Part shown: positions 31,878 to 54,636 of the stretch, piece after piece
Position numbering within the stretch: position 1 is the first letter of the stretch
How the letters are laid out: every line of letters starts with the position of its first letter
Assembly (NCBI GenBank): GCA_034087725.1
Contig: JAXDXW010000016.1
Coordinates: 1,586 to 65,585, forward strand
DNA length: 64,000 nt
Direction: 5' to 3'
Origin: Candidatus Onthovivens sp.
Lineage (GTDB): Bacteria > Bacillota_I > Bacilli_A > RFN20 > CAG-826
Position numbers and translations under genes: made by a program
Notes under the pieces: model-generated
Seen by the model: the letters and a program-made list of their open reading frames with translations, nothing else
Database searches by the model: none
Told to the model about the DNA's origin: nothing

Positions 31878-31909
31878 AAAAACCTTCTAAAACTCAATTA
31901 TTTTCTAGA
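31878..31909 (+). repeat. Dispersed element copy (AAAAACCTTCTAAAACTCAATTATTTTCTAGA)
   Basis: 26/27 identical to the copy at 39251 over AAAAACCTTnTAAAACTCAATTATTTT. It overlaps the ferritin stop codon on the antisense strand. Confidence 0.75.
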
Positions 31910-32383
31910 TTTTAATGATTTATCAAATTCAAATAATCCAAGTCCGGTATCACATAAAAGATCATATTTTTCAATAAGTTCTTTGCTGTGTTTTTCTTCT
32001 TCGAATTGTTCAGAAATAAACCAATTCATAAAGTTCATAACTGTGACGTCATCTAATTTATGAGCAACACTTTGAATATTTTTAATTAAACTTGTGACAA
32101 GCTTTTCATGCTCAAGTTGGAAAACAAGAGGTTCTCTTAAATCTTTAAAAGTCTTGTGTGGAGCTTCGATAGGCTTTAAGACAAATGCGACATCAGAATC
32201 GTGCAAAAATTCCATAAATTTTTCTGCGTGTTCAACTTCCTCTCTAGCTTGTGCTTCAAACCATGAATGTAATCCATCCATTCCCTTTGCTCTATAGTAT
32301 TCAGCGATATCTAAGTATAAATAAGCACTCCAAAGTTCTTTATTTACTTGATCTTCCATTAATAATCTTAATGATTCTTCCAT
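31898..32383 (-). CDS. Non-heme ferritin
   Basis: Ferritin-like diiron ligand pattern: NKELWSAYLYLDIAEYY, AREEVEHAEKFMEFL, ISEQFEEE. Confidence 0.88.
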   Translation of the reverse strand: MEESLRLLMEDQVNKELWSAYLYLDIAEYYRAKGMDGLHSWFEAQAREEVEHAEKFMEFLHDSDVAFVLKPIEAPHKTFKDLREPLVFQLEHEKLVTSLIKNIQSVAHKLDDVTVMNFMNWFISEQFEEEKHSKELIEKYDLLCDTGLGLFEFDKSLKSRK

Positions 32384-32521
32384 AGTTTTCTCCTTTTTAG
32401 AATATTTTATTCTTAATAGACATTATTTTAAATAGTAATGCTCAAAAATATGAAAAATAATAATTATTTATTTTTGAAGAAAGAGGAAAAAATGTTATTA
32501 TTTTTACCAGAGGTAAATTTT

Positions 32522-33325
32522 ATGAAAAGATTAGAGAATAAAGTAGTAATTGTAACTGGTTCTACGAGTGGAATCGGAATTGGAATTGCTAGATTATGTG
32601 CTTTAGAAGGCGCTAAAGTAGTCGTTTGTGGTAGAAGAGAAGATAAAGGACAAGCAGTAGTTGAAAAAATTAAAAGCGAAGGCGGTGACGCGGTTTTCCA
32701 TTTCTTCGATATAACTAAATTAGAAACTATTGAATCATTAATTAAAGATACAGTAGAACAATTTGGACACATTGATGTTCTTGTTAATAATGCTGCCAAT
32801 GTTGCTTTAAAAGATGGCAGAGTAGATGAATTAACAGTTGAAATGTGGGATGCTATTTTTGAAAGCGATATGCGTGGAACATTCTATGCAACAAAGATTG
32901 CACTTCCTTATTTAATGCAAAATGAAAAAGGTGGATCAATTATTAATATAGGATCTATGGCTTCTACAGCAGGAGACTTAAGTTCTACTGCATATGCTTG
33001 TGCAAAATCTGGTGTTGACATGTTAACTAAAATGGTTGCATTACAATATGGCAAGAAAAATATTAGATGTAATTGCATTAGACCAGGACTTATTGTCACG
33101 CCTGAAAATGATGCCCATGTCCCACAATTCCTTAAAGATATATTCTTAGATAATATTGAAGTAAATAGATATGGCTGTCCAGAGGACATTGGAAATTTAG
33201 CTGTATTCTTTGCTAGTGATGAAAGCGAGTATGTTACAGGTCAAATTATTAATGTTGATGGCGGCATGAATTCTCATGTTCCAACTGTAGCTCAAATGAG
33301 AGCATTAAATAAAAGAACGTGGTAA
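32522..33325 (+). CDS. Short-chain dehydrogenase/reductase (SDR)
   Basis: TGSTSGIGIGIA cofactor motif, NNAA, and the YACAKSG catalytic Y-x3-K. The ATG at 32522 follows AGAGG. The track start at 32438 adds an implausible leader. Confidence 0.88.
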   Translation: MKRLENKVVIVTGSTSGIGIGIARLCALEGAKVVVCGRREDKGQAVVEKIKSEGGDAVFHFFDITKLETIESLIKDTVEQFGHIDVLVNNAANVALKDGRVDELTVEMWDAIFESDMRGTFYATKIALPYLMQNEKGGSIINIGSMASTAGDLSSTAYACAKSGVDMLTKMVALQYGKKNIRCNCIRPGLIVTPENDAHVPQFLKDIFLDNIEVNRYGCPEDIGNLAVFFASDESEYVTGQIINVDGGMNSHVPTVAQMRALNKRTW

Positions 33326-33330
33326 TATTT

Positions 33331-52024: not shown

Positions 52025-53901
52025 TGAACTATGATTATGATGTGATAGTAGTTGGTGGAGGACACGCAGGAGTTGAAGCTTGCTTAGCATGTGCTAATAG
52101 AGGCTTTAATACACTTTTAATTACATTAAATATAAATATGATTTCAAATATGCCATGCAATCCATCAATTGGGGGAAGTGCAAAAGGCATTGTTGTAAGA
52201 GAAATAGATGCTTTAGGTGGCTTTATGGGTAAAGCAGCGGACCACGAGTATTTGCAAATGAAAATGCTTAATACAAAAAAAGGTCCTGGTGTTCAATGCT
52301 TGAGGGCACAAGCTGATAAAAAAAGATATCCCCACTTTATTCAAGAACATTTAAAAAATACACATAATTTGACTTTACTTGAGGATCAAGTATGTGAGAT
52401 TTTGCACGATAAAAATAAGGTTTTTGGAGTAAAAACCCTGCAAAACTCAACTATTTTTTCAAAAACTGTAATTTTAGCTACAGGTACTTATATGAACAGT
52501 GAGATTCTTGTAGGACACAAAAAATATAGTGGTGGTCCAGACGGAGAGAAGCCCGCGACTTATATTTCTTCTTCACTCCGCGAGATGGACATCAAATTAA
52601 TTAGACTGAAAACAGGCACCCCTCAACGCATTAAAAAAGAATCAATCGATTTCTCGAAAGCAGAAATTCAATTAGGAAATGTAGACGATGAAGGATTTTC
52701 TTATGTGGATCATGATTTTATACCGATTGATAAGCAAATCCCTTGTTATCTAATTTACACAACTTCCGAAACGCATGAAATTATTAGAGATAATCTAGAT
52801 AAGAGTGCGATGTATGGTGGAATGGTTCATGGAGTTGGCCCTCGTTACTGTCCATCGATTGAAGATAAAATTGTTCGTTTTTCTGACAAACCTAGACATC
52901 AACTATTTTTAGAACCTGAGAGTTATGACACAAATAGCATTTATCTTCAAGGATTTTCAACTTCCATGCCTGAAGATATTCAAGAGAAAATGGTTCATTC
53001 ATTGCCAGGACTTGAAAATGCCGAGATTTTAAAGTATGCCTACGCAATTGAATACGATGCTTTAGATCCTACTCAATTTAATACCTCGTTAATGGTAAAG
53101 AAATGGCCGGGTTTATTTATATGTGGCCAAATTTGTGGAACAAGTGGTTATGAAGAGGCGGCTGGATTAGGATTAATGGCCGGAATTAATGCAGGAAATT
53201 TTATCTTAAATAGAGAACCTTTTATATTAAGGAGAGATGAAGCTTATATTGGGGTTATGATTGATGATTTGATTACTAAAGGGACCAAAGAACCTTATAG
53301 GTTATTGTCATCTAGAGCAGAATATCGACTTCTATTAAGACATGATAATGCTGATCTTAGACTAACTGAATACGGTTATGAACTAGGTCTAATAGAGGAA
53401 GATCGATATCAAGAATTTGCAAAAAAACGTGAAAACATTACTAAAATAATTGAGTTCTTATCAAAACTTAATGTAGGTAAGACTAGTAAAGTAAACACTT
53501 ATTTAGAAAATATTGGATTTGATAGACTTGAAAACGGAGTAAGGGCAATAGATATTTTAAAAAGAAATGGTGTTGAATATTCAGACCTGAAGCAATATCT
53601 AGATATCCCAAATGAACTGAAAATAGACTCTTATGGAGAAAAACAACTTTCTATACAAGTTAAATATGATGGTTATATTCAAGGAGAAAGAAAAGAAGCT
53701 GAGAAATTAAAAAAACTTGAAGCAATTAAATTACCATCTAATTTTGATTATTCGAAATTAAACGGTTTAGCACTTGAAGCTAGACAAAAATTTAATGCTA
53801 TACAGCCAGAAAATATAGGTCAAGCAAGCAGAATAAGCGGAGTAAATCCTAGTGACATTAACGCTCTTATATTACATATTAAAAAAGGAGATGTTAGATG
53901 A
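52024..53901 (+). CDS. mnmG: tRNA uridine-5-carboxymethylaminomethyl synthesis enzyme MnmG
   Basis: YDVIVVGGGHAGVEA FAD motif, and GPRYCPSIEDK. Its start overlaps the sufB stop (TAATG). Confidence 0.93.
   Translation: MNYDYDVIVVGGGHAGVEACLACANRGFNTLLITLNINMISNMPCNPSIGGSAKGIVVREIDALGGFMGKAADHEYLQMKMLNTKKGPGVQCLRAQADKKRYPHFIQEHLKNTHNLTLLEDQVCEILHDKNKVFGVKTLQNSTIFSKTVILATGTYMNSEILVGHKKYSGGPDGEKPATYISSSLREMDIKLIRLKTGTPQRIKKESIDFSKAEIQLGNVDDEGFSYVDHDFIPIDKQIPCYLIYTTSETHEIIRDNLDKSAMYGGMVHGVGPRYCPSIEDKIVRFSDKPRHQLFLEPESYDTNSIYLQGFSTSMPEDIQEKMVHSLPGLENAEILKYAYAIEYDALDPTQFNTSLMVKKWPGLFICGQICGTSGYEEAAGLGLMAGINAGNFILNREPFILRRDEAYIGVMIDDLITKGTKEPYRLLSSRAEYRLLLRHDNADLRLTEYGYELGLIEEDRYQEFAKKRENITKIIEFLSKLNVGKTSKVNTYLENIGFDRLENGVRAIDILKRNGVEYSDLKQYLDIPNELKIDSYGEKQLSIQVKYDGYIQGERKEAEKLKKLEAIKLPSNFDYSKLNGLALEARQKFNAIQPENIGQASRISGVNPSDINALILHIKKGDVR
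52431..52464 (+). repeat. Dispersed 34-bp element, reference copy (AAAAACCCTGCAAAACTCAACTATTTTTTCAAAA)
   Basis: Lies inside mnmG, where it is read as KTLQNSTIFSK. Confidence 0.85.
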
Positions 53902-54596
53902 CTCTAGAAGATTTAAAAATACTTGATTTTTTTAATATTTCTCTTGAGAAAAAAGAACTTTTTTTAAAGTTTGCCTCTCTGCTGAAAGATACAAATGAAA
54001 AATTTAATTTAACAGCTATTGTTGATGACCAAGAAATTGCTGAAAAACATTTTTTTGATTCTTTAGTTGTACTTCAAAAACATAAGTTCTTTAGTGGCAC
54101 TAAAGTTTTAGATATAGGAACAGGAGCAGGATTCCCAGGAATCCCTTTGGCAATTGTTTGTCCTGATGTTGATTTTTATTTATTAGAATCTTCATCAAAA
54201 AAGTGTGATTTTATTAAAACAGTAGTCAATGAATTAAAGTTAAATAATGTTATTGTTTTAAACAGAAGAGCTGAAGAGATTAAGAGTGATGAAAGAGAAA
54301 CCTTTGATTTTGTTATTACTAGAGCAATGAGCGAAATGAGAATTCTATCTGAGTTATGTGCGCCTTACCTAAAAGTGAATGGATTGTTAATAGAATATAA
54401 AGGATTAAATTATAATATTGAATTACAAAAATCTTTTTCTACTAATAAAATATTGAGTATGAGATTACTTGATACTTACTCTTATCATTTAAAACAATCA
54501 AATCAAGATAGATATATTGTTTCATTACAAAAAATGAAAAAGACACCTTTAAACTATCCTCGTAATTATTCCCTCATTAAGAAAAAGAGTCTTTAA
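53898..54596 (+). CDS. rsmG: 16S rRNA (guanine527-N7)-methyltransferase RsmG
   Basis: SAM motif VLDIGTGAGFPGIPLAI. ATGA overlap with mnmG. Confidence 0.9.
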   Translation: MTLEDLKILDFFNISLEKKELFLKFASLLKDTNEKFNLTAIVDDQEIAEKHFFDSLVVLQKHKFFSGTKVLDIGTGAGFPGIPLAIVCPDVDFYLLESSSKKCDFIKTVVNELKLNNVIVLNRRAEEIKSDERETFDFVITRAMSEMRILSELCAPYLKVNGLLIEYKGLNYNIELQKSFSTNKILSMRLLDTYSYHLKQSNQDRYIVSLQKMKKTPLNYPRNYSLIKKKSL

Positions 54597-54602
54597 AATT
54601 CA

Positions 54603-54636
54603 AAAAACCCTCTAAAAGTCAATTATTTATTCTAAA
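54603..54636 (+). repeat. Dispersed element copy (AAAAACCCTCTAAAAGTCAATTATTTATTCTAAA)
   Basis: Begins 7 nt after the rsmG stop. Confidence 0.75.

Follow-up and report, generated by a model that had tools for sequence, protein, structure and literature searches.

In a 64,000-nucleotide (nt) stretch of the genome of Candidatus Onthovivens sp. (assembly GCA_034087725.1, contig JAXDXW010000016.1, positions 1,586 to 65,585 of the forward strand; hereafter the window), a long asymmetric DNA word recurs directly after genes, in either orientation. The word family is undescribed, and it forms a DNA-level block that recurs just 3′ of stop codons. It is also missing from the DNA around the replication terminus. 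By analogy with nucleoid-occlusion sites, we read the word as a candidate protein-binding site that would mark the chromosome arms, with its place beside stop codons reflecting where copies can be parked; we regard this reading as falling just short of an even call. The assembly, labelled G000 here with the window as its contig C16, comes from pig gut and comprises 1.18 Mb in 83 contigs at 29.7% G+C. In a comparison of MnmG sequences, its nearest relatives were uncultured ‘Mollicutes/Bacilli’ and Candidatus Onthovivens genomes; the other species of the genus referred to below are labelled G009, G011, G013, G015, G018, G039, G045, G050 and G052.

The element and its position beside stop codons

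The six copies studied in the window share a 23-nt core, AAAACCYTNYAAAASTCAAYTAT. The core consensus, AAAACCCTGCAAAA[C/G]TC[A/C]A[C/T]TATTTTTT, is asymmetric and carries phased A/T tracts. In an alignment of 133 genomic copies, conservation spans positions −21 to +35 relative to the core start, which defines a 57-nt element with the profile AAAA-S-Y-C, N2, TATTTTT, N4, AAAAACCCTGCAAAA[CG]TC[AC]A[CT]TATTTTTT, N, AAATTTT. A length of 34 nt had been given for the motif in an earlier note on this DNA; that figure stands for the highly similar unit, to which contigs from four pig/gut metagenomes also delimit the shared sequence, and it falls short of the whole element, which includes the phased A/T-tract flanks. 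Direct AAAA-SYC modules are seen in the profile at −20, 0 and +10, and the short palindrome of nucleoid-occlusion sites is absent from it. In G018 (L086:6990-7030 and 10510-10560), the upstream flank is a second AAAACCCTGCA module, and the element there resembles an AAAA-CYC unit repeated directly, with spacings of 10 and 20 bp. Mutual-information analysis of the copies showed that the flanks swap AAA for TTT blocks and that the core occurs in two sub-variants, CTCAA and GTCCA.

A profile search with nhmmer (E ≤ 0.01) returned 217 copies in the 1.18 Mb, or about one per 5.4 kb, and the window itself contains nine matches at three or fewer mismatches, against 0.05 expected. The word is carried by 12 of the 41 species of the genus, in lineage-restricted ‘dialects’. 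An Rfam search gave no match at the copies, the only hits in the window being a lysine riboswitch and a tRNA, and a literature search found no published description of the word.

For the genome-wide test of position, long open reading frames (ORFs) were called, which cover 91% of the assembly and leave about 9% non-coding. Seventy-nine of the 217 copies (36%) lie wholly inside long ORFs, and the remaining 138 are intergenic or straddle a boundary. Among the 108 intergenic copies with a flanking gene 3′ end, the core is no further than 22 nt from the stop codon in 78%. Uniform re-placement of the copies in the same gaps averaged 39% over 2,000 trials, the highest of which gave 55% and thus none 78%. 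The proposal in the earlier note that copies are enriched near stop codons, for which this genome-wide distribution had been named as the deciding comparison, therefore survives.

The enrichment is seen in different kinds of gap. In tandem gaps of at least 150 nt, the stop is no more than 22 nt away from 36 of the 56 copies, where 12% would be expected; the next start is that close to only four. Convergent gaps have 20 of their 22 copies near stops, against 16.4 expected (p = 0.025). Divergent gaps hold 15 copies, with no gene end nearby and none closer than 65 nt to a start; the element avoids the ~60 nt upstream of start codons. The same adjacency to stops was found in 400 kb each of G009 and G018 (in G018, 20 of 25 copies within 26 nt). 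Counted from the side of the genes, a flush copy is carried by 72 of the 355 gene ends that are followed by a gap of at least 50 nt. The long gaps were also considered as proof of positive selection at stops, an argument that we rejected as confounded, because many of them hold tRNAs, transfer-messenger RNA (tmRNA) or small genes missed by the ORF caller; an Rfam search of 12 long gaps detected only an L31 leader.

The distance between copy and stop is not smooth. Sense offsets cluster at −3 to +3, 8, 11–12 and 18–19, and antisense offsets at −8, −4 and +1 to +12. These clusters are the registers in which the stop codon coincides with consensus positions, and the stop next to sense copies is therefore mostly TAA (50 of 57; genome-wide, TAA makes up 67% of stops; p = 3e-4). 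Sense copies share the TAA with their A-tracts, at 0–3 or at −20 to −17, or else with TAW at −11 to −9. For antisense copies, it is the core triplets TCA (15–17) or YTA (19–21) that read as TGA, TAG or TAA on the other strand. Because the stop codon usually lies within the 57-nt element, ‘adjacent’ really means overlapping.

A word-free zone around the replication terminus

In G000, the 53-kb contig C79 contains no copy of the word, against 9.7 expected. Contigs C36, C79 and C53 overlap end to end at 97–98% identity, and the 85.5 kb that they form has no match even at E ≤ 10; the expected number is 16.9, or 11.3 when corrected for coding density (P = 1.3e-5). Both GC skew and gene orientation switch from plus to minus at 42–45 kb of C79. 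At the GC-skew switch, a convergent gap contains a 28-nt dif-like site, ACTTCGTATAATATATATTATGTTAAGT (C79:42098-42125, equivalent to L170:599-626, where locus L170 is C79:41500-48000). This site has four mismatches to the dif sequence of Bacillus subtilis; elsewhere in G000 there are only two matches at seven or fewer mismatches. A XerC/D-type recombinase gene (L170:4386-5276, minus strand) is found 3.8 kb from the site. A Y-family polymerase gene also adjoins it.

The genes of the zone include holA, lepA, hrcA-grpE-dnaK-dnaJ, era, recO, glyS, dnaG, rpoD, a topoisomerase pair, efp, tkt and aspS. The species closest to these genes are also those closest to genes elsewhere in G000. The zone is thus not foreign DNA, given its housekeeping genes and this agreement in their relatives. 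On the same agreement, and on the single-copy state of the genes, we also rejected a mis-binning of the contigs that lack the word. The second-largest word-free stretch of G000 (C9:14711-39400, 24.7 kb) includes a Tad-like operon.

The same gap was found in other species. In G018 it extends from 35.7 to 161.3 kb around a skew switch at ~100 kb (P = 7.6e-9), and in G011 from 36.6 to 120.7 kb around a switch at ~80 kb (P = 1.4e-6). Exact 14-mer matches leave a gap of 38.4–189.0 kb in G015, where the switch is at ~115 kb, and of 98.9–264.1 kb in G050, where it is at ~180 kb. In the genomes that show both edges of the gap, its two arms are equal in length to within a few kilobases. The terminus-side contigs of G039, G009, G052 and G045 are also without copies. 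In total, a zone of 85–165 kb is empty in all nine word-bearing genomes checked and is symmetric about the GC-skew switch in four of them (G011, G018, G015 and G050). An 11-mer search returned no terminus-specific replacement word. The sharp bounds, symmetry and conservation of this empty zone, which is core DNA, point to selection acting against copies close to the terminus, and hence to a function inside the cell.

Orientation, structure and turnover of the copies

Our results support a reading of the word at the level of double-stranded DNA rather than RNA, because its orientation is balanced, its copies show no covariation and it has no fold of its own. The preference of the earlier note for a DNA-level signal over a simple RNA-level role is thereby upheld. 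Tandem gaps hold 47 sense and 39 antisense copies, and relative to replication there are 96 leading and 112 lagging copies, though 85% of genes are co-oriented with replication. This balance rules out a Chi- or KOPS-like polarity. A promoter reading, in which the reverse complement would approximate a −35 box, a 17-nt spacer and a −10 box, was dropped because both orientations are equally common at gene ends. Mutual-information analysis of the copies gave no long-range covariation or pairing, only neighbour effects. When the 3′ regions of the six genes were folded as RNA, the element itself was unpaired unless a separate inverted piece was present. A significant hairpin is found in four of these six regions, either separate from the element (ferritin and yhaM) or with the element as one arm (the SDR gene and the clamped copy at 36287), and in two there is none. 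The inverted clamp is rare, occurring at 5–7 of the 217 copies, which rules out a clamp hairpin as the general form of the element; inverted pairs of copies within 200 nt number only three.

Terminators were predicted with a simple hairpin-plus-T-run predictor. They are present at 27 of the 72 gene ends with a flush element and at 36% of those without one (p = 0.78). The order is stop, element, terminator: the terminator lies downstream of the element in 18 of the 27 cases and overlaps it in nine. The element neither substitutes for nor needs a hairpin terminator, and of the two parts of an intrinsic terminator, a G+C-rich hairpin and a U-tract, it has the T-tract and no hairpin. Within the terminus zone, terminators are predicted at 6 of 20 gene ends, compared with 84 of 233 element-free ends elsewhere, so no extra terminators compensate for the missing word. 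That the ~76 genes of this zone have neither copies nor additional terminators argues against a general role at transcript ends. The alternative offered in the earlier note, a role in termination or 3′-end processing, is disfavoured by both the equal hairpin rates and the terminus zone.

The six copies in the window lie where they were first described, three in sense and three in antisense orientation to the adjacent gene. Pfam confirms the neighbouring products as ferritin, SDR, ABC ATPase, a YhaM-like HD/OB protein and RsmG; it gives no match for the 478-amino-acid (aa) ORF at 34832-36268, previously called a lipoprotein. The sense copies are found at 54583..54639 (+), with the core at 54604-54626, 7 nt past the rsmG stop; at 42773..42829 (+), with the core at 42794-42816, 12 nt past the stop of the yhaM-like gene; and at 36266..36322 (+), with the core at 36287-36309, 18 nt past the stop of the 478-aa ORF. 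RNA folding gives no structure for the region of the rsmG copy (z = −0.6). In the second copy, the upstream flank covers the final codons and the TAA of the yhaM-like gene, and the same gap contains a separate terminator hairpin at ~42828-42853 and is converged on by a HIT-family gene. In the third, the clamp reported earlier is real: the AAAAAGCCTGC end is clamped by GCAGGCTTTTT at 36330-36340.

The first of the antisense copies, at 31858..31914 (+; core 31879-31901), faces the ferritin gene (31898-32383, −). Its core overlaps the opposite-strand stop by 4 nt, such that core positions 19–21 (TTA) are that stop codon, and the ferritin transcript has a hairpin terminator beyond the element, at ~31838-31876. 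The second, at 39246..39302 (−; core 39259-39281), is antisense to the ABC ATPase gene, the stop of which ends at 39250, 8 nt from the core; its region contains no significant RNA structure (z = −0.4). The third, a weaker copy (E = 1e-3) at 33325..33381 (−; core 33338-33360), is antisense to the SDR gene, the stop of which ends at 33325, 12 nt from the core. As the earlier note had it, this copy supplies the 5′ arm of the terminator hairpin of the gene (33337-33374, −20.6 kcal/mol), which consists of the element copy and a partial forward copy, TTTTCAAAATCTCACT. A tRNA-Leu(CAA) at 33444-33529 and a lysine riboswitch at 36430-36596 occupy most of the apparently long gaps downstream of two of the six copies, so that the DNA 3′ of the 33338 and 36287 copies is not free.

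Other copies in the window lie mostly within ORFs. A further intergenic copy (core only, 14065..14087, −) lies closer to a called start codon (21 nt) than to a stop (137 nt). A perfect copy inside mnmG (52432..52454, +) is in frame and encodes KTLQNSTIF; other in-ORF copies on the coding strand are at 19708-19730, 25795-25817, 29701-29723, 48420-48442 and 49926-49948, and one at 17209..17231 (+) is antisense to its long ORF. The copy at 49926-49948, in a KTLQNLTIYNE context, has counterparts at this position in five or more other species and may be held by the protein sequence rather than by the word.

Comparison between species shows how copies differ at a given site. The mnmG copy lies in a variable loop and was built by point substitutions: there is no change in length relative to 35 orthologues, and close relatives show intermediate states. 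At a second mnmG site, a copy is present in three relatives and not in G000, again with no indels. In-gene copies occur in every frame and on both strands, and are spread uniformly along genes (Kolmogorov–Smirnov p = 0.49). Intergenic copies turn over: the end of rsmG has a sense copy in G000 and an antisense copy in G011; the yhaM gap has a sense copy at +12 in G000 and G011, an antisense copy in G018 and, in G045 and G013, a copy flush with the convergent gene instead. Species with a copy in the yhaM gap have gaps ~40 nt longer than species without one. No strain lacking a copy, by clean deletion or as an empty allele, was found in the contigs of the four pig/gut metagenomes.

Possible functions of the word

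If the word marks the chromosome arms, a sequence-specific chromosomal protein would bind it there and would find no site at the terminus. Acting in the manner of Noc or SlmA, such a protein would allow division to start only once the site-free terminus occupies mid-cell, and selection would maintain many copies on the arms and remove those near the terminus. Copies would be parked after stop codons because the word is long, rich in A/T tracts and hard to encode in protein, and because promoters, leaders and terminators are themselves constrained; in a compact genome, the short stretch past a stop would be the main place for a copy to persist, and both TAA and Lys-rich C-termini can contribute bases to the AT-rich flank. 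The closest functional analogue would be the family of nucleoid-occlusion-type sites. Sites for Noc and SlmA are spread along the arms, are under-represented around the terminus and, when moved there, delay division (PMC4726725). Like the Noc sites (NBS) of B. subtilis and Staphylococcus aureus and the SlmA sites (SBS) of Escherichia coli, the word is present on both arms, in genic and intergenic DNA, has no strand polarity and is missing at the terminus. Unlike them, it is not a palindrome of 12–14 bp present in 25–70 copies and bound by a ParB- or TetR-family dimer; it is asymmetric, 34–57 bp long, present in ~220 copies per 1.2 Mb and parked at stops.

Several observations weigh against this assignment. 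The density of the word is ~10 times that of known nucleoid-occlusion sites, and its asymmetry and length of at least 34 bp are foreign to them. No second ParB-family (Noc-like) gene was found: nearly all genomes have at most one ParB_N match and G000 has none, in a search that also missed ComEC, which makes the absence weak evidence. In several long, apparently empty gaps the element is still flush with the stop, and in convergent gaps, which lack promoters, copies are nevertheless closer to stops than chance allows; parking and selection at gene ends are not fully separable on these data. The flips of orientation at the same gene end across species, at rsmG and yhaM, could likewise mean selection at gene ends. 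Contig C23 of G009 has a 53-kb word-free stretch in mid-arm, a size possible by chance at the lower density of that species. Finally, all genomes are draft metagenome-assembled genomes, in which the terminus was placed from skew, gene orientation and a dif-like site. As a separate observation, a ParB-family gene comes directly after rsmG, ~13 kb downstream of yhaM, in most relatives; at this place the window of G000 (54758-57624) has a His_kinase and AraC-type response-regulator pair instead.

A DNA-uptake (self-recognition) signal, like the uptake signal sequence (USS) of Pasteurellaceae or the DNA uptake sequence (DUS) of Neisseriaceae, is the strongest of the alternatives, although we consider it unlikely. 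Biased uptake and recombination would spread such a word, which would be kept wherever it is tolerated, the stretch past stops being the most tolerant. The likeness to USS and DUS drawn in the earlier note holds for the location at gene ends, a known bias of such signals, and for the use of both orientations; the word is also abundant, lineage-specific in its ‘dialects’, substituted into genes with no indels and sometimes found in terminators, and its phased AT flanks recall those of the Haemophilus USS. About half of USS and DUS copies lie in terminators (bioRxiv 10.1101/2025.10.24.684340). Candidate uptake genes are present. The comEA and comEC genes of G000 are split over a contig junction (C36:14-2487 and C79:35-394; tblastn with the G015 protein), and the result of the Pfam-based genome search, which reported no ComEC in G000 and most word-bearing genomes, was a false negative. 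The products of an operon at C9:27514-30702 are a TadA/T2SSE-like ATPase, a pair of TadB/C-like membrane proteins and two small pilin-like proteins (an MGELKG start followed by a hydrophobic helix); conservation of the Tad-like ATPase extends to nearly every species in the genus.

However, competence genes are equally present in word-free relatives, and the analogy loses force in two further respects. Inverted pairs, the usual intergenic form of USS and DUS, are rare here (three pairs within 200 nt), and the drive of uptake does not predict a symmetric, terminus-centred free zone in the core, syntenic housekeeping DNA of nine genomes. Sequence-specific uptake is not known in Bacillota, and uptake signals are not known to avoid the terminus. 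USS and DUS have cores of 9–12 nt at ~1 per kb, often in inverted pairs, with foreign DNA in their free tracts, whereas single copies dominate here and the only large free tract is core terminus DNA. In Neisseria, DUS-free tracts mark foreign islands (PMC7371117).

It is improbable, in our estimate, that the element functions as DNA at gene ends themselves, as a site for a topoisomerase, nucleoid or roadblock protein that handles supercoiling or read-through, as has been proposed for repetitive extragenic palindromic sequences (REPs) and the bacterial interspersed mosaic elements (BIMEs) built around them. Such a role would account for adjacency to stops above expectation even in long and convergent gaps, for flush copies at as many as 72 of 355 gene ends, and for gene ends that keep the element while its orientation flips across species; the phased A/T tracts over ~57 bp would suit wrapped or bent DNA. 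The enterobacterial REP/BIME repeats are likewise extragenic and lie just past stops at gene or operon ends, in either orientation. Liang, Rudd and Deutscher reportedly found in 2015 that many REPs are within ~15 nt of a stop codon, and REPs bind gyrase and IHF as DNA. Unlike REPs, which are imperfect palindromes that form RNA hairpins, never occur in genes and are tied to RAYT transposases, the word has no palindrome and is in genes in 36% of cases (79 of 217). These in-gene copies, deep in genes and uniformly spread, speak against a gene-end role, as do the 15 copies in divergent gaps with no gene end near and the ~76 genes of the terminus zone that manage with neither copies nor extra terminators.

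An action in RNA, as a 3′-untranslated-region element for termination, 3′-end processing or mRNA stability, is very improbable. Copies do lie between the stop and the terminator where a terminator exists (18 upstream of it, nine overlapping it), a few form one terminator arm, and the C-rich, G-poor sense RNA may resemble a Rho loading site; yet both orientations are equally common, neither structure nor covariation is seen, hairpin frequency is unchanged, the entire terminus zone lacks the word and 79 copies lie inside ORFs on either strand. Least credible of all is a miniature mobile element inserting beside stops or terminators, for which the ~40 nt of extra length in the yhaM gap of species with the element and the differing orientation at one site could be cited, but against which stand in-gene copies that have no indels and a graded build-up of substitutions, a profile with no terminal inverted repeats or target duplications, four metagenomes with no clean-deletion strain, and an exclusion from the terminus that is not a transposon trait.

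For annotation, the block directly 3′ of stop codons should not be labelled a terminator, a small RNA or a mobile element. The terminus-centred exclusion is a testable genome-scale property, and it points to a chromosomal role in vivo rather than to an uptake signal. Carried further, the arm-marking reading leads to a more tentative proposal, possible in our view yet doubtful: that uncultured, genome-reduced gut Bacilli of the order RFN20 may have an undescribed system that tells arms from terminus, in which a protein related to neither Noc nor SlmA would recognize ~200 long asymmetric words, parked at stops on both arms and excluded from a symmetric ~±40–80 kb around dif, and which would couple division or chromosome compaction to the end of replication. 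If a chromosomal role in vivo is borne out, the word would provide a bioinformatic handle with which to map arms and terminus in draft metagenome-assembled genomes, and it would show how division is tied to chromosome segregation in a lineage that shows no more than one ParB-family gene, with no second, Noc-like copy.

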